Source: a virus. From it: DNA of 16,550 bases. The notes under the pieces are model-generated. The model had not been told where the DNA came from, did not search any database, and saw nothing but the letters and a program-made list of their open reading frames with translations. The stretch lies in the UHGV virus genome UHGV-0152507, one strand, 5' to 3'. Numbering within the stretch: the first letter of the stretch is position 1; each line of letters opens with the position of its first letter. A program made the position numbers and the translations under genes. This document shows positions 1 through 13,701 of the stretch, piece after piece.

Positions 1-53
1 TCGGTGGACCGTATTTCCTGTGGTTAATACTGCGTAGCCGGAGGGTGTCATGA
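1..53 (+). CDS. 3' end of upstream host gene, probably the hemin ABC permease (HmuU-like); only the last ~16 codons are in the window
   Basis: Open frame from window edge ends with TGA at 51..53, forming an ATGA overlap with the hmuV start at 50..52 (typical permease/ATPase coupling). Too short to identify by sequence. Confidence 0.4.
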
Positions 54-820
54 TCGTCGCTGAAAATCTGGTCTACCACATTCAGGAAAGACGACTGACC
101 GACGACGTTTCCCTGACGCTACCTGATGGAGAGATCATCGCGATTCTTGGCCCGAACGGAGCCGGGAAATCGACGCTGCTACGCCAGCTTACGGGATATC
201 TGCAGCCCCACAGTGGGCGTTGTAGCATGTTTGGCAAGCCGCTGGACAAGTGGTCAATCACCGAGCTGGCAAAAACCCGTGCCGTGATGCGCCAGAATAG
301 TCATATGGCCTTCCCGTTTAGCGTTCAGGAGGTCATTCGCATGGGCAGACATCCGTATCGGACGCGCAATACGGGCGATGAAACGGAGCACATCATGGCA
401 TTGTGTGATTGCCAGGCGCTGGCCGCACGCGATTACCGGCATCTGTCGGGAGGAGAACAACAGCGGGTACAGCTGGCGCGCCTGCTGGTTCAGCTTTGGG
501 AGCCCGAGCCTGGGCCGAAATGGCTGTTTCTTGATGAACCCACCTCCGCGCTGGATATTCACCACCAGCAGCACCTTTTTCGTCTGCTACGTCGTCTGGT
601 GCGTGAACGGCAGTTTAACGTCTGCTGCGTCCTGCACGATCTCAACCTCGCGGCGCGCTATGCCGACCGCGTGGTATTGATGGAGCGCGGCAGGATAGTT
701 GATAACGGATATCCGCAGGATGTCCTGAAGCAACGGTCGCTGAACGCGCTGTACGGTGCCGATCTCACGGTCATAAATGAACCGGAGCATCGAACGCCGA
801 TTATCGTCCTCAATCAATAA
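50..820 (+). CDS. hmuV: Hemin/haem ABC transporter ATP-binding protein (HmuV/ChuV family)
   Basis: 256-aa ORF with Walker [13 protein letters not shown] signature LSGGEQQRV and Walker [12 protein letters not shown]. Overall resembles enterobacterial HmuV/ChuV as recalled. SD GGAGGG upstream of ATG. Confidence 0.9.
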
Positions 821-826
821 CAGACC

Positions 827-856
827 GGGAACCCCTGGCGTGGCGTTCCCGTTTTT
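827..856 (+). terminator. Probable rho-independent terminator of the hmu operon
   Basis: Inverted repeat GGGAAC (827..832) / GTTCCC (845..850) followed directly by GTTTTT (851..856), just after the hmuV stop. Confidence 0.5.
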
Positions 857-973
857 CTCCCTTTACACCCTTTTTTCACCTTTTCTAAAAACGCCCTTGA
901 CCTTCCCCTTGCTGGGAGGTTTTCAAGTAGCGCAGTACCGCAAGGCACTGCGCCAATTCAGTATTTTACAGAC

Positions 974-2065: not shown

Positions 2066-2368
2066 TTAACCAGTCTTTTTCCCGGAGGGGTCTGATTGAA
2101 TTTCGTCTTGCCCATTGTGTGCGAGAGCCGGTGCTATTTGGCCTCGGCTCGGATCTGTACGGTCGTACATGAACCAATCCTGATACTTATGGAATCGGGG
2201 ATGACCAAAGAGTTTGATCGCAGCATCTAATGACATTTTTGATTTGCCTAATTCATATCCATTATAGGTTACGGGATTTACTCCAATTAAATCAGCAACT
2301 TGTTTCGATCTAAGTCTTTCAGAGTCTCTTATCAATTGAAGCTTTTCACTTTGGCACATTGACTTCAT
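2066..2368 (-). CDS. C: Immunity repressor, P2 C-like
   Basis: 100 aa. C-terminal half SRGQIAPALAHNGQDEIQSDPSGKKTG matches the P2 C tail (QIAPALAHFGQ...SGQKTG as recalled). N-terminal HTH region is similar. Lies upstream of and co-oriented with int, as in P2. Confidence 0.85.
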   Translation of the reverse strand: MKSMCQSEKLQLIRDSERLRSKQVADLIGVNPVTYNGYELGKSKMSLDAAIKLFGHPRFHKYQDWFMYDRTDPSRGQIAPALAHNGQDEIQSDPSGKKTG

Positions 2369-2403
2369 CTATCTATTCTCTTATCGTCTATCTAAATAGA
2401 TAC
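2366..2403. promoter_or_regulatory. Candidate repressor operator in the divergent C / early promoter region
   Basis: Direct 8-bp repeats TCTATCTA at 2368..2375 and 2387..2394 (19 bp apart). The second is part of the palindrome TATCTA-AA-TAGATA (2389..2402). P2 C is known to bind direct repeats about two helical turns apart at Pe. Confidence 0.4.
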
Positions 2404-4474: not shown

Positions 4475-5479
4475 ATGATTCGATCTCTCGTTAAATGGCC
4501 CGGTGGTAAAGGCCGCGTTATGCCTGATTTGCTGCCGATTCTGCCGAAAGCCGATTGCCTGGTGGAACCGTTTGTCGGCGGAGCTTCTGTTTTCCTCAAT
4601 ACTGAATATCGCCGTTATATCCTGGGTGATATCAACCCAGATTTAATTAACCTGTATCGCCAGATAACCCGCTGGCCTGATGCGGTGATCGACGCTGCTC
4701 GCCCGCTGTTTAAAGTGTACGGTGATAAAGACGGCTATAAGTGGATCCGCGACGATTTCAACGCCCGCGCCCATGACCTTCTGTCATCGCGCAATGTGTT
4801 TGAGGACGGACCGGACGCGGGCAAGATTCTTCGTGCAGCACAGTTTCTTTACCTGAACCGTCACGGATATAACGGCGTAGTGCGCTACAACCAACAGGGC
4901 GGATATAACGTTCCCTTTGGTAGACACAAAACCCCGCCTTACTTCCCGGAAGAACAGATCCGTTTATTCTCTGAAAAAGCTAACGACACGAAAGCTATTT
5001 TCGTGTGCTGCGATTTCCAGAGCACGTTAAAAATCATGATTGGTAGTGACGCGGTTATCTACTGCGATCCGCCATACCTGCCAGCAAGCGACACCGCTAA
5101 TTTCACCCAATACCACACCGCCCCGTTTGGCATTAAAGAGCATCGCCAGTTAGCTGCCGCCCTGCTGGATATTAACCGCCTTACTGGTTCGCCGGTGATC
5201 CTGTCCAATAGCGACACCCCATCTACCCGCGAGATTTATCGCGCTTTCAACTTCCAGGAAATCAGCGTTAACCGTTCTGTCAGCGCGAACGCCATTACCA
5301 GAGGGGCCGCCAGTGAAGTGATCGGCGTGCTGCCTGTCTGTGATGGCTGCGGGCGCTATGAAGGTGGTCACTGTGCGAAATGTTGCCCAGGTATCGCCGC
5401 ATGTGAGGAGGGATGGTCGTTTGATTGTCGAGGCAACTGCGATATTTGCGAGCCGTCCGATAACCCGGAAACGTGGTAA
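4475..5479 (+). CDS. dam: DNA adenine methyltransferase (Dam family) with a C-terminal Cys-rich extension
   Basis: AdoMet-binding motif EPFVGGASVF near the N-terminus and catalytic DPPY (CDPPYLP), with Dam-like sequence throughout. SD GGAGAAAG. The last ~50 codons (5330..5479) encode ten cysteines that are not part of a typical Dam. Confidence 0.9.
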   Translation: MIRSLVKWPGGKGRVMPDLLPILPKADCLVEPFVGGASVFLNTEYRRYILGDINPDLINLYRQITRWPDAVIDAARPLFKVYGDKDGYKWIRDDFNARAHDLLSSRNVFEDGPDAGKILRAAQFLYLNRHGYNGVVRYNQQGGYNVPFGRHKTPPYFPEEQIRLFSEKANDTKAIFVCCDFQSTLKIMIGSDAVIYCDPPYLPASDTANFTQYHTAPFGIKEHRQLAAALLDINRLTGSPVILSNSDTPSTREIYRAFNFQEISVNRSVSANAITRGAASEVIGVLPVCDGCGRYEGGHCAKCCPGIAACEEGWSFDCRGNCDICEPSDNPETW

Positions 5480-5495
5480 TAGCGAGGGATCTGCA

Positions 5496-6125
5496 ATGAG
5501 AAAAACACACGAATTAAAGATTTGGCCGGAGTTTTTTCAACCTGTTATGGACCGCGTGAAATACGCTGAATTGCGCCTAAATGATCGCGACTATAGCGCG
5601 GGCGACGTTTTGTTTTTGCGGGAGTTTTTACCCGCTAGCGGCAAATATTCGGGCAGCTATAACGTAGTAATAATATCTCATGTCGCTGATGTATCGGCGT
5701 TTATGCCGGGGTACGTCCTGCTTAGTTTCACTTCTTTCGTTACGCGCGGCGCTAACTGGCCTTTCCATAAGCCAACTACAGTGGAGGCTGCTGTAACTGC
5801 GGAAGATACTGGTTTTCTTTCGGCGCTTGTCGCCTGCGAGCCTCCCTGTAGCGTGATTCACCAAATGGCACGCCGACTGCTTGATGAACATCCATCGCTT
5901 CCAGTGTCCGAAAAATCTGATCTGTTGCCATGCCCCTTTTGCGGTGAAGCGGCTTTCTTTGACTCTATTTTTGATTACCAGTCAGAAACGCGTGTTTATG
6001 CCCCGTCTTGTACGGAGTGCTCATGCGAATTGATGGACGGCCCGATCATTAACAAATATGGGCGCGGTTGGTATGCCTCAAAGCAGGATGCCGCCGAAGC
6101 CTGGAATAAAAGGCGCTCGCAATGA
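5496..6125 (+). CDS. Two-domain protein: N-terminal DUF3850-like (ASCH/PUA-like) domain fused to a C-terminal Lar-family restriction-alleviation-like domain
   Basis: N-terminus MRKTHELKIWPEFFQPVMDRVKYAELRLNDRDYSAGDVLFLREF matches the DUF3850 hallmark as recalled. C-terminus LPCPFCGEAAFFD...SCTECSC...AAEAWNKRR matches the Lar-family pattern (CPFCG ... C-x2-C ... AWNRR). SD GAGGGA before ATG 5496. Stop overlaps the next start (ATGA at 6122..6125). Confidence 0.8.
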   Translation: MRKTHELKIWPEFFQPVMDRVKYAELRLNDRDYSAGDVLFLREFLPASGKYSGSYNVVIISHVADVSAFMPGYVLLSFTSFVTRGANWPFHKPTTVEAAVTAEDTGFLSALVACEPPCSVIHQMARRLLDEHPSLPVSEKSDLLPCPFCGEAAFFDSIFDYQSETRVYAPSCTECSCELMDGPIINKYGRGWYASKQDAAEAWNKRRSQ

Positions 6126-7126
6126 CTGCCTATTACAACGAAATCGATCCATATGCAGCACAGTGGCTGCGCAACCTCATTGATGCCGGGCATATTGCGC
6201 CAGGCATTGTTGATACCCGTTCAATTGAGGATGTAACCCCCAATGACCTTAAAGGCTTTACTCAATGTCACTTCTTTGCCGGGATCGGTGTGTGGTCATA
6301 TGCCCTGCGTCTTGTGGGCTGGCCGGACGACAAACCGATCTGGACTGGATCCTGCCCATGCCAGCCTTTCAGCCCGGCAGGCAAAGCAACTGGGTTTGAT
6401 GACGAGCGGCACTTATGGCCCGCCTTTCATTGGCTCATTGCTCAGTGCCGCCCTGTCGTTGTCGCTGGCGAGCAATCTGGAAGCGCTAACGCGAACGTCT
6501 GGCTCGACCTTGTACAAACTGACATGGAAAGCCTGGGCTATGCCTTCGGGGCGGTCGCGTTTCCGTCTGCGAGCGTCGGTGCGCCACACATCTGGGACAG
6601 AGCTTACTGGGTGGCCGACACCAACGGCGAGCGCATGGAAACACCCTGGAAACCAGGGGAGGCAGGGAGGCTTGAATTTGCAAACGGCCACAGCATTAGC
6701 TGGGTGGCCGACACCAACAACGCAGAGCAACAACCAAATCTCAGGAGTTGGAGCTGCTGCAGATCACCCGAAGCGCGGGACAACTTTGGGCGGGGCTGCT
6801 CAGCTGTCGGGGTGGCCGACACCAGCTTCAAGGGACGGCAAGGGGGGGTATCAGGGCGGGAGGATACGCAACGGGAAGCTGTCGACGGACACGCTGGATG
6901 TGACGGCGCAAATTGCGGGACCGGTCCGGTTAACGGTTTCTGGCGATCTGCTGACTGGCTGTATTGCCGGGATGGAAACTGGAGGCCAGTTAAACCCGGA
7001 CTTAAGCCGCTGGTTGATGGGGTTACCGGACGAGTGGGAAAAATCCGCGCCTACGGAAACGCTATCAACGTTGAAGCTGCAACAGCGTTCATAAAGGCTT
7101 ATATGATGGGGGCGTCAAATGTCTGA
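6122..7126 (+). CDS. Dcm-like DNA cytosine-5 methyltransferase, apparently frame-disrupted or frame-variable
   Basis: Annotated frame has FFAGIGVW (motif I-like), catalytic PCQ at 6356..6364, RPVVVAGEQ (motif VI-like), LESLGY, GAPHIWDRAYWVA (motif VIII-like) and YGNAINVEAATAFI (motif X, 7052..7093). The motif IX-like LNPDLSRWLMGLPDEW is only in the overlapping +1 frame (6990..7037). Confidence 0.7.
   Translation: MTAYYNEIDPYAAQWLRNLIDAGHIAPGIVDTRSIEDVTPNDLKGFTQCHFFAGIGVWSYALRLVGWPDDKPIWTGSCPCQPFSPAGKATGFDDERHLWPAFHWLIAQCRPVVVAGEQSGSANANVWLDLVQTDMESLGYAFGAVAFPSASVGAPHIWDRAYWVADTNGERMETPWKPGEAGRLEFANGHSISWVADTNNAEQQPNLRSWSCCRSPEARDNFGRGCSAVGVADTSFKGRQGGVSGREDTQREAVDGHAGCDGANCGTGPVNGFWRSADWLYCRDGNWRPVKPGLKPLVDGVTGRVGKIRAYGNAINVEAATAFIKAYMMGASNV
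6607..6826. repeat. Three copies of a 19-nt element inside the methyltransferase gene
   Basis: CTGGGTGGCCGACACCAAC at 6607..6625 and 6700..6718; CGGGGTGGCCGACACCAGC at 6808..6826. They encode GWPTP in the +1 frame and (W/G)VADT in the annotated frame. Confidence 0.7.
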
Positions 7127-9737
7127 CGCCGCCTTTGCATGGCCCTGGAACGCGCCGCGCCCAGCTGTTGGCCTGTACACCTACGAACCGAAAAAAATCG
7201 CCCCGCTTGCCGGGGCGGTGGCGCATCATCCTGCCGTAAAAAAACACATCGATCACATATTCAAACGCGCCGGTTACAACCCTGACGACGTTCGCGACCG
7301 TGACGCGCTGATCCAGACGCTGGACAGGTACGAACCGTGCGGCCTGCCACTGGCCGCCCAACAAAATATCATCCGGCAGGAAAGTGCAGCCGCGAAAGCT
7401 GCGGCGGCCGCCTGGGCCAATACGCCGGAAGGTGTCGAAGCGCGTTTGTTGTCTGAGCCGTTCTTCATCCGCGAAGTCTGGCGCAAAAAAATTGAATGGT
7501 TACGGGCCAACCGTGAAACCAGACACACCAATGATTTTCTTATGGGGACCGTGAAAAAATCATTGCTGCGTCTTGATGTTGTGCGCACAAGGCAAGGTGT
7601 TTCGCCTGATATCACCGGCGAACTGGCCGCGTACTGGTTCGGGCGCTGGCAACGGCTGGCTGATTTCACAAAGCGGGAAGCCCTAAGCGCCGCTAATGAG
7701 ATCGCCAGCCGCATGGCTGAAATGCTGGGGACGGAATGCGAAGCCTTGGGACGAAATGTTTCAGACATGAACGTCGAAGAACTGGACTGGCTTTATTGCC
7801 ACCTGGGCCGTGAAATGCTGGCGCTTCGCATTGTGCCGCCTGCATGGTATGCGCCGTGGGAACGCGAGCGCATATGCACGGCCATTTTGCGTATGGCTTC
7901 GCCTGACTGGTGGGGGCGCAAAATCTGGCGCTTGCGTTGTGACTGGCGCGAAAACCAGCTGCGTGCTGTTGGCGCGGTAAATAAAAAAGCGCATCCGTAT
8001 ATCAGTGCATCAAGCCTGATGGAATGGCAGGAACAGCGACGTAAAAACCGTAATTTCTTCAAAAGTCATGAACTGGTAGACGAAGACGGCAACGTTTCGT
8101 CGCTTGAGGACATGATTAACAAATCCACGTCTAACCCTGCAATTCGTCGTCATGAGCTTATGGCCCGTATGGCTGGCGTGGAGCTTGTCGCCCAGAGTCG
8201 TGGCGATGTTGGCATCTTCCTGACCATCACTTGCCCGTCGAAATATCACGGCAATATTGCGTCCGGCCACCATAACGCAAAATGGAACTACGACACGGTT
8301 GCACAGGCGCAACGCTATTTATGCCGCGTATGGAACCGGGCAACCGCCAAACTGAAACGCGAAGATTTGCGCCCTTACGGCTTCCGCGTCGCCGAGCCGC
8401 ATCACGACGGAACGCCACACTGGCACGCCCTGCTATTTATGCCGCAGGCAGAAGTTAAAGCCACGGTAGCGATTTTGCGTGATTACTTTGTCAAAGAGGA
8501 CCGCGCCGAACTGGGGCGTAATACCGGTGCTCGCTTCAAGTCCAAAAAAATGGACCCACGGAAAGGGTCAGCAACGGCGTATATCGCGAAATACATTTCG
8601 AAGAATATCGACGGCCATGCGCTGGCCGGTGAACTGGACGACGAAAGCGGCAAGCCGCTGAATGAAACAGCCAAATATGCAATGGCCTGGGCATCACTTC
8701 ACCGCATCCGTCAGTTTCAGCCCATCGGACAGCCGCCCATATCGGTTTACCGCGAGCTGCGCAAACTGAGCAATCAGATCACGACGCGCCAGAAAATTGA
8801 CAATACCTTCAAGCGCGGTGCGCCGTTGCTTGTGGATCCTGCTATGGATGCGGTTTGCGCCGCTGCGGATGTCGGGTGCTTTGCTACCTACATCATCCGC
8901 CAGGGTGGTGTTTTGATCCCGCGAGAAAACTATGTCGTCCGTCTGGCCTATCAGCCAGCTGATGAAATGAATGCTTATTGTGAGATCCCCGAAAAGGTAT
9001 TCGGGGTCTGGTCGCCACGTCTGGGGGATGCCTCCCGCATTTGCACCCGTCTGGTTAAGTGGAAAATCCGCGCCAAATCCAAAGCCACCACCGGGGCCAA
9101 AAACGGCCCCGGTTTGGGGGTTGACCTTTTGCCGTCGCCAACCGGCGACGCTTGGAGTTCTGTCAATAACTCTACGGAAGACGAAAAAATCACCGATTTT
9201 TCGCCTGATGTGGAAGGGGTGACAGGAGGAGCAGAAGGGGAAATCGGCGATGTTGAAAACATGGACCAACCGACACGGCGAAAATTGATGCGGCGACTAC
9301 GTGAAACACCATTCAAAAGGCAGCAAAACGGATCACCTTATGAGCCAGGCAGCGAATTAGATGTCGCCTGGCGTTCTGCCGTGGAAAAAACCGAGGCCAG
9401 ATCGGCGGCAGAAAAGGCCAAACGGGCGGCGCTTGCCCCTGCTGTTGCCAGCCTGCTGGCAGATGCGGCGTTGTATTCGGTTGAGATTTCAGAGATTCAG
9501 GCCGTTTCGCTGTTAATGGGGAGTTGTCTGGAGATTGGCGGCAAAGTTTATCGGGCCAGTGCTGACGGCCAGTTGATAACGCGTCAATTACCCGACGAGT
9601 CACGGACGGTGAATAAATTATGGGAACGTCTGCGGGATAACCACGGCATAGATGCCACGCGCCTGCGGTTCGACCCTGCGGGCGAATACGCAAAGATGTT
9701 AACGAAAGCAATTAATTGCGCTGACAAAAAGGGGTGA
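7119..9737 (+). CDS. A: Rolling-circle replication initiator endonuclease, P2 gene A-like
   Basis: 872 aa. HUH-type motif GTPHWHALLF and paired-tyrosine motif YIAKYISKN (compare phiX174 gpA YVAKYVNK). N-terminal AWPWNAPRPAVG resembles P2 A. Position after the early accessory genes is as in P2. Confidence 0.9.
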   Translation: MSDAAFAWPWNAPRPAVGLYTYEPKKIAPLAGAVAHHPAVKKHIDHIFKRAGYNPDDVRDRDALIQTLDRYEPCGLPLAAQQNIIRQESAAAKAAAAAWANTPEGVEARLLSEPFFIREVWRKKIEWLRANRETRHTNDFLMGTVKKSLLRLDVVRTRQGVSPDITGELAAYWFGRWQRLADFTKREALSAANEIASRMAEMLGTECEALGRNVSDMNVEELDWLYCHLGREMLALRIVPPAWYAPWERERICTAILRMASPDWWGRKIWRLRCDWRENQLRAVGAVNKKAHPYISASSLMEWQEQRRKNRNFFKSHELVDEDGNVSSLEDMINKSTSNPAIRRHELMARMAGVELVAQSRGDVGIFLTITCPSKYHGNIASGHHNAKWNYDTVAQAQRYLCRVWNRATAKLKREDLRPYGFRVAEPHHDGTPHWHALLFMPQAEVKATVAILRDYFVKEDRAELGRNTGARFKSKKMDPRKGSATAYIAKYISKNIDGHALAGELDDESGKPLNETAKYAMAWASLHRIRQFQPIGQPPISVYRELRKLSNQITTRQKIDNTFKRGAPLLVDPAMDAVCAAADVGCFATYIIRQGGVLIPRENYVVRLAYQPADEMNAYCEIPEKVFGVWSPRLGDASRICTRLVKWKIRAKSKATTGAKNGPGLGVDLLPSPTGDAWSSVNNSTEDEKITDFSPDVEGVTGGAEGEIGDVENMDQPTRRKLMRRLRETPFKRQQNGSPYEPGSELDVAWRSAVEKTEARSAAEKAKRAALAPAVASLLADAALYSVEISEIQAVSLLMGSCLEIGGKVYRASADGQLITRQLPDESRTVNKLWERLRDNHGIDATRLRFDPAGEYAKMLTKAINCADKKG

Positions 9738-9739
9738 GC

Positions 9740-9955
9740 ATGAAAATTATTATTGGGCATAAGAAGCAAAATAATCAGTTAGATGTAGTTGTAAGTGCCT
9801 GGTGTTGGGAAGTGGAGCAACTCAATAAGCTGACAAAAGAAGTGATCCGGGTGTTTTTTGTGGAAGGTGAAGCAACGTGCGTGCCGTCGTCATTTCTTCT
9901 GCGTCGTAAATACAAGGTAAGCGGGCCGGAGAGTTCTAAATCTTCCACCAGATAA
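9740..9955 (+). CDS. Hypothetical small protein (71 aa) immediately after A, at the P2 orf91 position
   Basis: ATG 9740 sits 3 nt after the A stop, with AAGGGG upstream. AT-rich. No motif recognised. Confidence 0.45.
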   Translation: MKIIIGHKKQNNQLDVVVSAWCWEVEQLNKLTKEVIRVFFVEGEATCVPSSFLLRRKYKVSGPESSKSSTR

Positions 9956-10066
9956 AACAGTCAATCGCGAAAACCTGCGTTACTTGTTGCGCGGGTTTTC
10001 ACGATTCTGCGGGTGCGGGCGGCAAAGAGTCCGCATGTTTTGATTCTAAAAGTGAGATAAGAAAAA

Positions 10067-10282
10067 ATGAAAGCGAGTTATATCAGTTACTTTGAAGGTT
10101 ACGATGCTCTTGGCCGAATGATTTTTAATGGCAATGGTTCATGTTCGGTTGAATACGACGAGACTGAGGGAATCGATCCTGAAGGGTTGCAGGTCGCGCA
10201 TTGTGAGCATCTTTTAAAGGTGGCCCAGGCCAAAAATAACAGTGTCGTGAGAGTCACGATTAATAACATGATGAAACTGTAA
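10067..10282 (+). CDS. Hypothetical small acidic protein (71 aa), cargo at the P2 tin/old position
   Basis: Stand-alone ORF in an AT-rich stretch, followed by a stem-loop terminator. Weak SD. No motif recognised. Confidence 0.5.
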   Translation: MKASYISYFEGYDALGRMIFNGNGSCSVEYDETEGIDPEGLQVAHCEHLLKVAQAKNNSVVRVTINNMMKL

Positions 10283-10309
10283 TTGTTATCAATTCCAATA
10301 GTTAAAAAT

Positions 10310-10326
10310 GCCCGCTTTATGCGGGC
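10310..10326. terminator. Bidirectional rho-independent terminator between convergent genes
   Basis: Stem GCCCGC / GCGGGC with a 5-nt loop. Followed on the plus strand by TTCGTTTAT and on the minus strand by ATTTTTA. Lies 5 nt beyond the minus-strand zinc-finger gene stop. Confidence 0.55.
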
Positions 10327-10331
10327 TTCGT

Positions 10332-10658
10332 TTATGCCGTCTGACCGTTGAGCAGGTCCAGCGCGAATTGACGTTCTTCGGGCTTGAGCCGGTCAATCAG
10401 AAATTTAACCAGCTTGTTGCCGGTCAGCCCGCTGGGGCTGAGGGTATGTGAAAACTCAACGCTATAAACAAATGTATGACCACATTCCACTTCCGTGCAG
10501 CCACAGTATAAAGACGCCAGTTTTTTATCTTTCCAGTCAGATTTACGAATGATGGCCGGTGAGCCGCATTCAGGACATTTAATTTTAAAAACTCGCATGT
10601 TCACCATCCCGCACGCCATTGCTAACAATGGGGATGATTTTAACTTAACTGCGCTCAT
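10332..10658 (-). CDS. Ogr/Delta-family zinc-finger protein (putative late-gene transcription activator)
   Basis: CPEC ... CGCTEVECGHTF matches the Ogr pattern CPLC ... CQNVNCSATF, with similar spacing. ATG at 10658 overlaps the portal stop (ATGA). An alternative start at ATG 10598 (MRVFKIKCPEC) would give an Ogr-sized N-terminus. Confidence 0.7.
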   Translation of the reverse strand: MSAVKLKSSPLLAMACGMVNMRVFKIKCPECGSPAIIRKSDWKDKKLASLYCGCTEVECGHTFVYSVEFSHTLSPSGLTGNKLVKFLIDRLKPEERQFALDLLNGQTA

Positions 10659-11716
10659 TTTTCGCCCTTTTCGACGGTGATTGCCGGGATATCTACATCA
10701 AAATGCAGGTGCAAATGTGGGGGGATCTCCGGGTCATTGTTGACGCCGTTCATTAGCTTGCGCTGCAACGGGATAACTTCATCCTTGCGATAGGTTGTGC
10801 GGGCGGTTTCAGGGTTGCCCATTACCGCGCCATTGGTCGGGATGATACCGGCCAGCCCTGCGGGGAAACGGTGAGCGGTAAAGATATCCTGCGCGGTGAT
10901 CCCTTTGATGTTGGCAAATTCATCCTTTGCGCTGACTTCGCCCACTGGCATGATTTTAACCCCTTCCGGGTCGCCCTTCGGGATGTTGATAAACATATTG
11001 CGGAAGTTACCCAGCCCTTTGGACTGGGCGATCTTCTCTTTGATTTCGTTTTCCATTTCCAGCGTCAGATTCGGATCGCTGGTATAGAGAATAAAGCCCA
11101 TATGCGCCCCGTTATTGTAGTAACGGCGCCGGAAGATGGTTGCCTCACTGTTGAGTAACACCGAATGGATGCCGCCGATATAGTCAGGCAGGCCATATAC
11201 CTGCTGGCGCGGGTCGTACATTTTAAAGAAAACGATGTCTTCCGGGTCATAGATAAGCGCTGGCCCTTCCTGCAAAACAGCAAACGAGCCGTCTTTCCGG
11301 CAGCGCAGGTACAGCGACGGCAGCGGCAGCAGGTCGATCACTTCCCCGAATACGTTACGAATTTTCAGGATAGCGACGTCACCAAACAGCAGGTAATCAA
11401 AGACAGCCTGTTCGACCTGGTCAGGCGTCAGGCCGCCGCCAATATAGCCACCGGCCACCATATTGCGCCGCGCATACAGCACCCCACCATGCTGGCCGTT
11501 AAGGTTCGGCAACTGGGCCAGCGCCAGGCGATCAATCGGGAGTCGCCAGTGGTCATATTCATTGTCATACCAGATATTGTGATAATCCGTGCCGGTCGTC
11601 AGGATGGGTTCGGGTTCGCCAAATGTGATCACGCTTCCGCGCCCTGGCGTGAAGGTTTCAACCTTGCTGCCGGTCATGGACCTGAATTTTTTATTATTAC
11701 GCTGTTTCTTTGTCAT
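10655..11716 (-). CDS. Q: Portal protein, P2 Q-like
   Basis: 353 aa. Segments LPDYIGGIHSVLLNSEATIFRRRYYNNGAHMGFILY and KGLGNFRNMFINIP resemble P2 Q (LPEYLSALNSAWLNESATLFRRKYYENGAHAGYIMY, KGRGNFKNLFLYAP as recalled). Confidence 0.9.
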   Translation of the reverse strand: MTKKQRNNKKFRSMTGSKVETFTPGRGSVITFGEPEPILTTGTDYHNIWYDNEYDHWRLPIDRLALAQLPNLNGQHGGVLYARRNMVAGGYIGGGLTPDQVEQAVFDYLLFGDVAILKIRNVFGEVIDLLPLPSLYLRCRKDGSFAVLQEGPALIYDPEDIVFFKMYDPRQQVYGLPDYIGGIHSVLLNSEATIFRRRYYNNGAHMGFILYTSDPNLTLEMENEIKEKIAQSKGLGNFRNMFINIPKGDPEGVKIMPVGEVSAKDEFANIKGITAQDIFTAHRFPAGLAGIIPTNGAVMGNPETARTTYRKDEVIPLQRKLMNGVNNDPEIPPHLHLHFDVDIPAITVEKGEK

Positions 11717-13524
11717 GCTGCTTTCCCAAAGTACCAGCCCGATGGGCGGTCATATTCGTGATCGATAGGTTCGTTAATTACGGCGTGCGAGATAGCGAAG
11801 AAAACATCTGCATGGCCGGTCGCGTCTGAACGTTCAGCAACAAACGTCAGCGCGTTGCCGCTGTTGGTTGTCGTGCGCCGGATAGCCATAAAGCTGGCCG
11901 GAATTTCGACGCGCTCTTTGTTCGTTTCGTCTACGGCGTCTTTTGCCCATTCGATGCGCTTACGCTCGACAACGTCGATCATCTTCATTACCAGACGGTT
12001 TTTGCTTTCGACGCTGTAAAGAATCGGTGTGGCTTCGCGTGGTGCAAACTTGCTGACCAGGTCATAAACGCCCTTACCTATGCCGGTTGTATCGATCCCG
12101 ATGTAAGTGATGTTAAAGCGGCGCATAAGTTGCTTTATCTGGTCGGCCTGCCAGCTGAAGTTAAAGCCCTGCCATTGCCAGACGGCCAGCACGCGGAAGC
12201 GCTCGCCGTCCTCTATGGGGGGCGCGATTAACACAAAAGTGGAGTTGTCGCCGGATCGTGACGGGTCAAAGCCTGCCCATACTTCGCGATTGCCGAAGGG
12301 CCGCGCAGCAGTCAGATCAAAGTCGCCCCATGTGGCCCGGTCCACTTCGCAACCGACAAGCGCGGAGAACTTGAACACCGCGTCCTTGCTGTCAACAAAC
12401 TGGCACATGTAGAGCATGGCAAACGCGGTCGGGCTGTATTTGTTGCGCAGTCGTTCAATATCGACAAGCGCCCCGAGGCCGCCTTCGATGGCGTCTTCCA
12501 TTGTGATGATATAGCGCCAGATCTGGTCCGGGCAGAGAATGCCCTGGCGCATTTCGCTTTCTTTCGGGAACGTCACACCTTTGCGTTTCGGGTCGTCCCC
12601 GCGCCAGGCTTCGCCAGTCCAGACCGGGTAAGCCTGGTGCGTTTTCGCGCTGGGCGTCGAAAAGTAGGTCGTGCGGTATTTGTTGTGCGTCGCCATTGCG
12701 CTGGCAACTTCGTGCAGGCGCGTGAATTTCGGGATCCAGAAAACCTCATCACCATACAGGTGGCCGTTAAAGCCCTGCGCGGTGCTGGCGTTCGTGGACA
12801 AAAAGCGCAGTATTGCGCCGTTGCTGAGGCGGATATTTTTACCCGTCAGCGTCACGCCGAAATGGTTCTGAGCGATCTGGACGATGTATTCACGGAAGAT
12901 TTCAGACTGGGAGCGGCTTGCAGAGAAAAAGACCTGGTTATCACCGGTAATGACAGCATCTTCGAATGCCTCCCAGGCGAAATAATAGGTCATGCCGACC
13001 TGTCGGCTTTTCAGAATGAAGCGCCAGTCTTCGCCTTTATGTTCGCGGCAGTGCAGCTGGTACTCGAAGAGATGTTCCCGCGCCCAGGTGTCGAGCATTT
13101 CCGCTGTAATACCGGAAACGTCGTTTTTCTTATACCGGCGCTTTCTTTCCCCTGGTTCCCCGCCTGCGCTGCTGAGGCAGTACCCTTCACCATCATAAGC
13201 CGCTTTCTGGGCCTGAATTTCTGCCAGCTTTTCGGCGTGCTTGTTGCGCTGCGCCATGAGTTTCACATGGTGAGCAATCAGATCGCGCAGTTCCTCCAGT
13301 TCCAGCGCTGTTTTTTTCTCGCGGCGGGAGAGCTGGTCGATACGGCGGGCGATGACATTTTCCACCGATTCAACAGGCAGCAGTGATGCCCACTTCCCGA
13401 CGTCAGCCCAGTGGTAAATTGTACGCGGTGGAATATTCAGTTCCTGCGCAATATCTTTCGGCGTCCAGCTTTTTATATAAAGCGTGCGGGCCGCTTCTTT
13501 TAATTCATCGGAATATTTAGCCAT
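11713..13524 (-). CDS. P: Terminase large (ATPase) subunit, P2 P-like
   Basis: 603 aa, upstream of and overlapping Q (ATGA), as in the P2 Q-P operon. N-terminal HTH-like region and terminase ATPase-like body. Call rests mainly on size and conserved gene order. Confidence 0.85.
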   Translation of the reverse strand: MAKYSDELKEAARTLYIKSWTPKDIAQELNIPPRTIYHWADVGKWASLLPVESVENVIARRIDQLSRREKKTALELEELRDLIAHHVKLMAQRNKHAEKLAEIQAQKAAYDGEGYCLSSAGGEPGERKRRYKKNDVSGITAEMLDTWAREHLFEYQLHCREHKGEDWRFILKSRQVGMTYYFAWEAFEDAVITGDNQVFFSASRSQSEIFREYIVQIAQNHFGVTLTGKNIRLSNGAILRFLSTNASTAQGFNGHLYGDEVFWIPKFTRLHEVASAMATHNKYRTTYFSTPSAKTHQAYPVWTGEAWRGDDPKRKGVTFPKESEMRQGILCPDQIWRYIITMEDAIEGGLGALVDIERLRNKYSPTAFAMLYMCQFVDSKDAVFKFSALVGCEVDRATWGDFDLTAARPFGNREVWAGFDPSRSGDNSTFVLIAPPIEDGERFRVLAVWQWQGFNFSWQADQIKQLMRRFNITYIGIDTTGIGKGVYDLVSKFAPREATPILYSVESKNRLVMKMIDVVERKRIEWAKDAVDETNKERVEIPASFMAIRRTTTNSGNALTFVAERSDATGHADVFFAISHAVINEPIDHEYDRPSGWYFGKAA

Positions 13525-13701
13525 GCGGCTATTATGGCGGGATTATTTGGCGGAATTGATAATTAAATATCGGTAAAAGGTGGTTAACCATTTATAACCG
13601 AATGCATAAGAAATAAAGCGGTCGCGCTGTTTTAACCAATTCGCAATACTGACCACCACGAACGAATCATTGTTATTTAAATTCATTATTAAAGGTCAGT
13701 T
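13525..13701. promoter_or_regulatory. Divergent late promoter region between P (leftward) and O (rightward)
   Basis: 177-bp AT-rich intergenic region between divergent late operons, as in P2. Contains the palindrome TGGTTAACCA (13581..13590) and a second TTAACCA (13632..13638). No exact TGT-N12-ACA dyad found by eye. Confidence 0.5.

Follow-up and report, generated by a model that had tools for sequence, protein, structure and literature searches.

The window analysed here is a stretch of 16,550 nt from the viral genome UHGV-0152507, and it corresponds to a peduovirus prophage of the HP1/K139 type. The Salmonella phages SW3 and SW5 align with about 73% of it, at an identity of about 95%, and phage SI7 gives a 96% match over its shared part; these three phages belong to the genus Irrigatiovirus, family Peduoviridae. 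The first gene in window order encodes a host ABC-transporter ATPase and is followed by a tyrosine integrase, a repressor resembling the C protein of P2, and an early operon that encodes Dam and C5 methylases together with the replication protein gpA. The early operon is followed by a convergent unit made up of P, the portal gene Q and a small zinc-finger gene, and then by the divergent O, N and M genes. As Q, P, O, N, M and gpA could all be identified, the window contains late operons of the P2 type, with P-Q divergent from O-N-M. Scans of the window for Rfam families and tRNAs gave no matches. The main features are listed below.

50..820: gene for a host ABC-transporter ATPase
11713..13524, minus strand: gene P, first gene of the leftward P-Q-zinc-finger unit
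10655..11716, minus strand: portal gene Q, 353 aa
10332..10658, minus strand: long ORF of the Ogr/Delta-like zinc-finger gene, 108 aa, its ATG overlapping the Q stop codon
10440..10580, minus strand: Ogr_Delta zinc-finger domain, residues 27-73, with Cys28, 31, 54 and 59
10332..10439, minus strand: clade-specific C-terminal region HTLSPS...L-x-P-E-x-R-Q, delimited by alignments
10303..10326, minus strand: intrinsic terminator, a GC-rich hairpin (GCCCGC-ATAAA-GCGGGC) followed by the T-run ATTTTT

Stop and start codons overlap along P, Q and the zinc-finger gene, which make up one leftward unit. The terminator begins 5 nt past the stop codon of the zinc-finger gene, with its hairpin part at 10310-10326. 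Given the coupling to Q and the location of this operon terminator after the zinc-finger gene, the late P-Q transcript should carry that gene, which makes positive feedback possible.

The zinc-finger protein and the place of its gene

An Ogr/Delta zinc-finger signature (CPEC, 20 residues, then CGCTEVEC) had been recognised in the initial annotation of this locus, and profile searches uphold it. The Pfam model Ogr_Delta (PF04606) matches the 108-aa protein over its entire length (model positions 1-47 of 47) with E=3.5e-16 and 59.3 bits, well above the curated gathering cut-off of 26.3 bits. The zinc ligands C28, C31, C54 and C59 have the spacing CX2CX22CX4C, which is the motif given for Ogr (PMC3931495). 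In an alignment with P2 Ogr, all four superimpose on C4, C7, C30 and C35, and they occupy invariant columns in the alignment of homologues. The zinc-finger domain is under strong purifying selection: synonymous codon changes outnumber non-synonymous ones by 735 to 211, and substitutions counted over a minimum spanning tree number 194, 78 and 850 at codon positions 1, 2 and 3, respectively. The same ligand spacing and a similarly small size are found in P2 Ogr, 186 B, PSP3 Pag and P4 Delta. At the level of the domain, the protein is thus a member of the Ogr/Delta zinc-finger family.

Identity with P2 Ogr is 25%, and the score against the Ogr equivalog model NF007241 of NCBIfam is 18.1 bits, below the cut-off of 116. 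The C-terminal region differs as well: the HTLSPS...PExRQ stretch is common to the proteins of K139, phiO18P, ESSI-2 and YenM324 and absent from P2 Ogr, and H71, T72, S74, P75, S76, P93 and Q97 are invariant in this part of the protein. The phrog_603 profile matches residues 1-107 (E=8e-42), that is, the full length including the C-terminal region. Judged from these comparisons, the protein belongs to the clade of the HP1/K139 Orf13 type (phrog_603) and is distinct from P2 Ogr proper. The SW3 'transcriptional regulator' QEI25520.1 is 94% identical to it; K139 Orf13, phiO18P gp19, F108 Orf17 and an HP1 ORF, which share both the finger and the HTLSPS...PExRQ region, are 43-49% identical, and the Ogr protein of Burkholderia phage KS5 (gp8) and those of related Burkholderia and Pseudomonas peduoviruses reach about 40% over the finger. 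Homologues of the HP1/K139 clade are also carried by P4-like satellites, where delta would be expected. Among solved structures we found no significant relative, the best zinc-ribbon match being a TFIIS-like chain (E=0.07), and the literature that we searched, which omitted most subscription journals, contained no functional study of any member of the clade.

The protein had been described as about 35 residues longer than Ogr at its C-terminus. The alignment distributes the surplus of 36 residues differently: about 24 precede the first cysteine, at the N-terminus, and about 12 are C-terminal; the N-terminal part includes an optional extension of 20 residues, to which we return below.

In P2, ogr lies after D, next to attP, and is tied to the FETUD operon, whereas the gene described here follows Q and is tied to the P-Q operon. 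A location near D had been assumed for P2 and its relatives in general, so that the present one appeared unusual. The assumption holds for P2 itself, but relatives of the HP1/K139 type carry the gene beside Q. In SW3 it directly follows the portal gene with an identical 4-nt overlap, and the P-Q-zinc-finger order of the window is also that of SW5 and SI7. These three phages and the E. coli copy (WP_000247826.1) share 94% protein identity, the terminator after the zinc-finger gene and the ATGA overlap with the window, and the backbone they have in common is about 95-96% identical in DNA sequence; SW3 differs from the window in the cargo found between the replication gene and the zinc-finger gene. 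An Ogr-like gene is located immediately 3' of the portal gene in ESSI-2, YenM324, ev015 and ev239, and after the portal gene in Vibrio phage K139 (orf13, annotated as 'zinc-finger protein'), Aeromonas phage phiO18P, Pasteurella phage F108, Haemophilus phage HP1 (an unannotated ORF) and Pseudomonas phage phi3. In the K139/HP1-like phages the gene converges on the early operon, as in the window. A 96%-identical copy occurs in 19 complete E. coli genomes, beside a gene annotated as 'phage portal protein', and is named 'ogr/Delta-like zinc finger family protein' in RefSeq.

A profile search with one genome per species yielded 80 Enterobacterales loci, which together with loci fetched earlier and the window gave a set of 87. 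The zinc-finger gene lies directly downstream of a portal gene, on the same strand, in 65 of the 87 loci examined, as it does in the window. By comparison of these genomes, the site after the portal gene is the standard and ancestral one in the HP1/K139 branch, in which K139, HP1, F108, phiO18P, ESSI-2 and YenM324 all have it. The gene is an ordinary one that has already been annotated, and its position had been noted in print: the ogr homologue of K139 was reported to be located between the portal and replication genes (PMC8537503). Moreover, peduoviruses do not all have their ogr-like genes in one place: the ogr gene of KS5 lies in the early operon, beside the repressor and apl-like genes and not beside the portal gene.

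It had also been proposed that the gene might be a second paralogue. A single Ogr-like gene is present in each of three complete sequences, those of SW3, K139 and the 96%-identical E. coli prophage, and relaxed tblastn searches with the zinc-finger protein and with P2 Ogr, combined with a scan for CxxC...CxxxxC, recovered from SW3 and K139 the known copy only. The SW3 genome lacks the D-ogr end altogether, its tail genes (DUF2586, DUF2597 and DUF2590) being of the HP1/K139 type, and neither SW3 nor the E. coli prophage has an Ogr-like gene at the tail end. This evidence comes from complete relatives of a prophage whose own right end lies beyond the window, and it speaks against a second copy. 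Nor does the location at the end of a late operon set the gene apart from P2, as had been supposed. The P2 record gives ogr its own -35/-10 signals and a single terminator 'for ogr transcript and F operon', so that P2 ogr, too, is the last gene ahead of a terminator that also serves a late operon, and is equipped with a promoter of its own; this is the topology that we propose here for the zinc-finger gene.

Start codons and a conserved hexamer upstream of the finger

The region between the Q stop codon and the finger contains the following elements; a repeat discussed with them is included.

10655..10658, minus strand: ATGA start-stop overlap of Q and the zinc-finger gene (ATG at 10658-10656, Q TGA at 10657-10655)
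10599..10655, minus strand: N-terminal extension, codons 2-20, basic and weakly conserved
10637..10644, minus strand: G-N-TAAAAT, probably an extended -10 element, with the hexamer at 10642..10637 and the G (position -14) at 10644
10596..10598, minus strand: internal start Met21 ('MRV...'), which would give an 88-aa form (10332..10598)
2368 and 2387: TCTATCTA, candidate operator repeat of the C-type repressor

The ATGA overlap pointed out in the initial annotation is present in the sequence and is shared by many relatives. An in-frame start codon (ATG, rarely GTG or TTG) overlaps the portal stop codon, as ATGA or as TAATG/TGATG, in 51 of the 65 portal-linked loci, and inspection by eye indicates such an overlap in loci L043 and L045 too (ATAATG). 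The overlap has been kept despite widely differing C-termini of the portal proteins. It is preceded by a Shine-Dalgarno-like GGTG or GGG, and the complementarity before the overlapping start averages -4.96 kcal/mol, compared with -2.37 at control positions.

Between this start and the internal methionine lie 17-20 codons with the pattern M-x-x-K/R-x-L/V-K-S/F/Y. Met21 is nearly invariant and equals the annotated start of the K139 and phiO18P proteins, which have 83 aa, compared with 108 aa for the ORF of the window, and lack the extension. In these two phages the gene does not overlap the portal gene: orf14 and a putative promoter separate the two in K139, and a gap of 65 nt does so in phiO18P. 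A conserved GGAG or GGGA is found 8 nt before the Met21 ATG, and the duplex formed with the anti-Shine-Dalgarno sequence has an energy of -7.8 kcal/mol in the window and a mean of -5.09 over the loci, again compared with -2.37 for the controls. Annotated starts disagree, giving 108 aa in SW3, 91 aa in PGAP annotation and 89 aa elsewhere. We attribute this disagreement to the coexistence of a conserved overlap, an internal start and an embedded -10 box.

One way to read these data is that the 88-aa protein made from Met21 is the sole product, that the 20-codon extension is an open but untranslated leader, and that the ATG at the Q stop codon is incidental or serves to retain ribosomes. Such a leader would fit the starts of the K139 and phiO18P homologues, the internal starts chosen by PGAP and by the annotators of ev015 and ev239, and the near-invariance of Met21 and its Shine-Dalgarno sequence. 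The extension is, moreover, poorly constrained, with entropies of 1.03, 0.98 and 1.27 at the three codon positions against 0.52, 0.21 and 1.30 in the rest of the protein, and its conserved letters (TAAAAT and GGAG) can be accounted for by signals in the DNA or RNA. However, substitutions in the extension number 105, 118 and 186 at codon positions 1, 2 and 3 along the minimum spanning tree, and because of this third-position excess (chi-square p ~1e-6) the extension looks translated, if lightly constrained, and may be described as weakly coding. Its indels are multiples of three, and in L043 and L045 the internal ATG is replaced by GTG while the upstream ATG is retained. Together with the Shine-Dalgarno-like motif ahead of the upstream start and the persistence of an in-frame start at the ends of very different portal genes, these features lead us to regard an exclusively 88-aa product as rather unlikely, and to consider that both starts may be in use.

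In the alignment, the most conserved letters within the extension are not explained by the protein. They form the motif G-N-TAAAAT, which sits in codons 5-8 of the long ORF. Exact TAAAAT occurs in 67 of 81 unique upstream sequences, compared with 2.8% of random 50-nt windows; it is found in 56 of the 59 that are portal-linked and in 11 of the 22 without an upstream portal gene. A G at -14 accompanies it in 62 of these 67 sequences, often as full TGnTAAAAT, and the motif stands at one of three set distances (32, 38 or 41 nt) from the internal ATG. Four loci in which the frame is closed or an upstream portal gene is missing (L024, L044, L063 and L065) retain the hexamer, and the codon that follows it varies between Ser, Phe and Tyr, which have the first base T alone in common. 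Based on this conservation, on the fixed spacing and on the persistence of the motif outside a coding context, G-N-TAAAAT is probably an extended -10 promoter of the zinc-finger gene, with a predicted transcript start near 10630. The K139 record likewise annotates a putative promoter, P13, ahead of orf13. A scan with consensus promoters detected nothing resembling a sigma-70 site ahead of the zinc-finger gene on the minus strand, and the hexamer has no -35 match.

Two modes of control of this candidate promoter were considered and rejected. Direct repression by the C-type repressor was set aside since no copy of its operator-like repeat TCTATCTA lies near 10600-10720. Autoregulation through activator half-sites (see below) was discarded as well, a weight matrix applied to 70 loci giving no peak upstream of TAAAAT; the sequence ATCCCGG, about 41 nt upstream of the hexamer, had seemed similar by eye and was dropped in view of the flat profile. 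As neither the repressor-operator-like repeat nor the half-sites occur near the hexamer, neither would account for a silencing of the gene's own promoter in a lysogen.

These elements bear on the suggestion that the activator gene lies inside the very operon that its product is expected to activate. Part of this suggestion stands: by the overlap and the terminator, co-transcription with Q and positive feedback are plausible. The gene is probably not locked in, however, as it appears to have its own promoter and the internal start Met21, and the paradox of an activator confined to its own operon probably does not arise. In its strict form, the suggestion implies an activator relocated into the late operon, or a second paralogue, that is expressed solely from the late P-Q transcript by translational coupling, with a feedback unlike that of P2. 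The conserved ATGA with its upstream Shine-Dalgarno sequence, the lack of a canonical sigma-70 promoter in the scan and the terminator directly after the gene would all agree with this. Against it stand the ancestral position of the gene in the HP1/K139 branch, the single copy per complete related genome, and the near-invariant -10-like hexamer and internal start with its Shine-Dalgarno sequence, kept even where no portal gene lies upstream. The separation of the gene from Q by a gap or another ORF in phiO18P and K139 also argues against obligatory coupling, and co-termination with a late operon is a property of P2 ogr itself. We consider expression from the late transcript alone improbable, and retain the view that the gene probably has a promoter of its own in addition.

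The intergenic region between P and O

The divergent late genes P and O are separated by a region in which alignment of 56 loci delimits the following elements.

13569..13612: symmetric four-half-site element, centre 13590.5
13569-13573: half-site H4, ATCGG
13579-13583: half-site H3, the inner one on the P side, decayed (GGTGG instead of TTCGG)
13598-13602: half-site H2, CCGAA
13608-13612: half-site H1, AAGAA
13531..13536, minus strand: -10-like CATAAT, probable late promoter of P-Q-zinc-finger gene, 42 nt from H3
13645..13650, plus strand: -10-like AATACT, probable late promoter of O-N-M, 42 nt from H2
13581..13590: palindrome TGGTTAACCA, overlapping the decayed H3 and the spacer

The initial annotation reported no TGT-N12-ACA dyad in 13525..13701, and we found none there either. 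The three matches in the whole window all lie within genes and compare with 3.15 expected by chance; the complete SW3 genome likewise has only intragenic matches at chance level. The palindrome TGGTTAACCA, noted in its place, does exist, but even the closest relatives have not kept it (it reads TGGATAGCCA in SW3 and TACATAGCCA in locus L019). We have rejected it as an operator and consider it incidental.

The alignment of the 56 intergenic regions contains instead three conserved blocks: a P-side CATAAT, an O-side AATA(C/A)T and, between them, a TTCGG dyad with the consensus TTCGG(A/T)TA-N6-TA(A/T)CCGAA, that is, TTCGG-N13/14-CCGAA. Weaker copies of the half-sites (TTCnn and nnGAA) are located 10 bp further out on both sides. 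A dyad of this type also lies between P and O in the K139/HP1-like phages, with a perfect form in K139 (TTCGGATAT-GGGGTT-ATATCCGAA) and the same CGGATA half-site in HP1 and F108, and the array occurs once per genome in SW3 and K139. In the window, H3 has decayed, a feature common to the whole SI7-like subgroup. Because of this decayed half-site, searches for full TTCGG-N14-CCGAA with up to two mismatches missed the P/O region of both the window and SW3; matches elsewhere were below chance.

The spacing between the blocks is strongly constrained. On the O side, the -10 element (AATACT here, AATAAT in other clades) lies 42 nt from the neighbouring inner half-site in 51 of the 56 loci. The distance from TTCGG to CATAAT is 59-61 nt, so that the P-side -10 element and the other inner half-site are correspondingly spaced. 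In two loci, from Hafnia (L018) and Morganella (L080), both spacings are shortened together to 32 nt, a difference of one helical turn. A -35 match is missing from both late promoters, each of which has half-sites near -57 and -47. In the late promoters of P2, the site for Ogr occupies a comparable position, about -55. CATAAT lies 6 nt ahead of the P start codon, and the P mRNA is probably leaderless.

The P2 Ogr group activates late promoters that lack a -35 element from an upstream dyad, and by analogy the same role is expected of the zinc-finger protein. Considering this analogy, and the co-occurrence of gene and array in Pasteurellaceae, Vibrio, Aeromonas and Enterobacterales, the array at 13569..13612 is probably the binding site of the zinc-finger activator. 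P2 has one TGT-N12-ACA dyad per promoter, whereas here a single candidate TTCGG-N14-CCGAA array with outer repeats would serve two divergent promoters. The suspicion voiced in the initial annotation, that the DNA specificity may differ from that of P2, thus gains in substance: TGT-N12-ACA is absent, a conserved TTCGG-type array is found instead, and a different specificity now seems probable.

Alternatively, the zinc-finger protein could be a small regulator of another kind that binds DNA or RNA, and a different factor of the phage or the host could bind the TTCGG array. The Ogr equivalog score of 18 bits against 116, the absence of the canonical Ogr target and the lack of any tested clade member in the literature searched leave room for such a view. 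Yet the Ogr_Delta model is matched in full and well above threshold, with identical ligand spacing, and the gene is the sole Ogr-like gene in phages that have P2-type late operons and late promoters without -35 elements. It co-occurs with the array from Pasteurellaceae through Vibrio to Enterobacterales, and P4-like satellites have clade homologues at the expected place of delta. A regulator unrelated to late activation therefore strikes us as highly improbable, and in what follows we treat the protein as the putative late activator.

A model of late-gene activation and its implications

We think it likely that the gene encodes the single late-gene activator of this P2-like prophage of the HP1/K139 type, located where it normally lies in the group, and that it acts in three steps. 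In the first, a kick-start, the G-N-TAAAAT promoter (10644..10637) would produce a short mRNA without the ATG at 10658; translation of this mRNA from Met21 (ATG at 10598, preceded by a Shine-Dalgarno sequence of its own) would give an 88-aa protein, the equivalent of K139 Orf13. In the second, the activator would bind the TTCGG/CCGAA array centred at 13590.5, upstream of both divergent late promoters. It may there recruit RNA polymerase via the C-terminal domain of the alpha subunit, and would thus turn on both P-Q-zinc-finger gene and O-N-M. This contact is proposed by analogy with Ogr, which interacts genetically with rpoA109, a mutation in the alpha C-terminal domain (PMC11434276). In the third step, amplification, the late P-Q-zinc-finger transcript would supply further activator in a positive feedback, with translation coupled to the termination of Q at ATGA (yielding the 108-aa form with its basic tail), starting from Met21, or both. 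Such a scheme would remove the chicken-and-egg problem of the initial activator, since the gene's own promoter would provide the first molecules and the late transcript would amplify them.

A more elaborate version of this model can be put forward tentatively, and we rate it as somewhat short of an even chance. In enterobacterial HP1-like prophages, the zinc-finger gene would form a nested unit with two outputs, an early 88-aa form made from the buried promoter and a late 108-aa form made by reinitiation at ATGA. A previously undescribed palindrome of four half-sites (TTCnn-N5-TTCGG-N14-CCGAA-N5-nnGAA) would drive both late promoters at a distance of 42 nt, and one of the two transcripts, the terminase mRNA, would be leaderless. 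The conserved overlap, the internal start and the embedded -10 element make this a testable model with two isoforms and two promoters.

As a whole, our analysis describes a routine gene and changes little. The secondary findings, namely the coupling to Q with the putative embedded promoter and internal start, the intergenic array and the probably leaderless P mRNA, are predictions from sequence comparison that should be moderately interesting to phage specialists and useful in annotation practice. P2 and 186 have ogr beside D, but this arrangement is no rule for the family, which is useful to bear in mind when prophages are annotated. The conserved TTCGG/CCGAA array, for its part, provides a concrete candidate operator for a whole clade of predicted late activators. 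It may be used to predict late promoters, as well as cross-activation by satellites, in prophages of Enterobacterales, Vibrio and Pasteurellaceae.

Late transcription and the start of the zinc-finger gene

The probable late promoter of the leftward unit formed by terminase P, portal Q and the Ogr/Delta-like zinc-finger gene contains a conserved element:

13522..13536 (-), conserved -10-like CATAAT lying within this interval, before terminase P

Only 6 nt separate the end of this CATAAT from the start codon of terminase P, so that the late mRNA of the window would be leaderless. Of 56 related loci, about half show a gap of 6-9 nt and would likewise produce a leaderless mRNA; other lineages have leaders of 30-40 nt with a Shine-Dalgarno sequence. 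The distance from the -10 box to the nearest half-site, the conserved repeat that is the probable activator target, is 32 nt instead of 42 on both sides of the P/O intergenic region in the loci from Hafnia paralvei (L018) and Morganella morganii (L080). One helical turn is gone simultaneously on both sides, and the outer half-sites have also been lost.

Public annotations conflict on the start codon of the zinc-finger gene (10332..10658) and its relatives. The protein is annotated as 108 aa in the related Salmonella phage SW3 (the ATG coupled to the portal gene), as 91 aa in a RefSeq E. coli copy (start at Met18) and as 89 aa in the related phages ev015 and ev239 (the equivalent of Met21).

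Early region, cargo and host junction

The remainder of the window contains the following features:

50..820, hemin-type ABC-transporter ATPase gene
2365..2401, direct repeats TC(A/G)TCTATCTA at 2365 and 2384
2393-2401, inverted copy of this repeat
4475..5479 (+), Dam-type methylase gene
5340..6125 (+), DUF3850 and Lar restriction-alleviation domains fused in one protein
6122..7126, C5 cytosine methylase gene (DNA_methylase match)
6243..7094 (+), 283-aa ORF
9734..9955 and 10067..10282, two small cargo ORFs

The TC(A/G)TCTATCTA repeats and their inverted copy, which separate the gene for the C-like repressor from the first gene of the early region, are probably the immunity operators. The Dam-type methylase, whose C-terminal tail is rich in cysteine, is overlapped at the 3' end of its gene by the DUF3850-Lar gene. 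The 283-aa ORF is nested entirely in the C5 methylase gene in a different frame and repeats a GWPTP motif; it has no Pfam match, whereas the host frame does match DNA_methylase.

The cargo between the replication gene and the zinc-finger gene (9738..10331) is unlike that of SW3, which carries a DNA methylase at this position, whereas the window has the two small ORFs, without a match in Pfam or PHROG.

The ATPase gene adjoins the prophage at 1..973, and a tRNA scan found none at this junction. Since this flank has no match among 5,426 E. coli genomes, the host is a member of the Enterobacterales other than E. coli.

Zinc-finger proteins in putative satellites

Proteins of the window's zinc-finger clade are also encoded in other elements:

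L083 6004..6330, zinc-finger protein
L084/L085 5995..6354, zinc-finger proteins

In each case an alpha-primase-like ORF of 861-895 aa precedes the zinc-finger gene, and a P4-type integrase is encoded close by. Judged from N-terminal sequences inspected by eye, the elements look like P4-type satellites. The presence of proteins of this clade in such satellites suggests cross-activation of HP1-type helpers.
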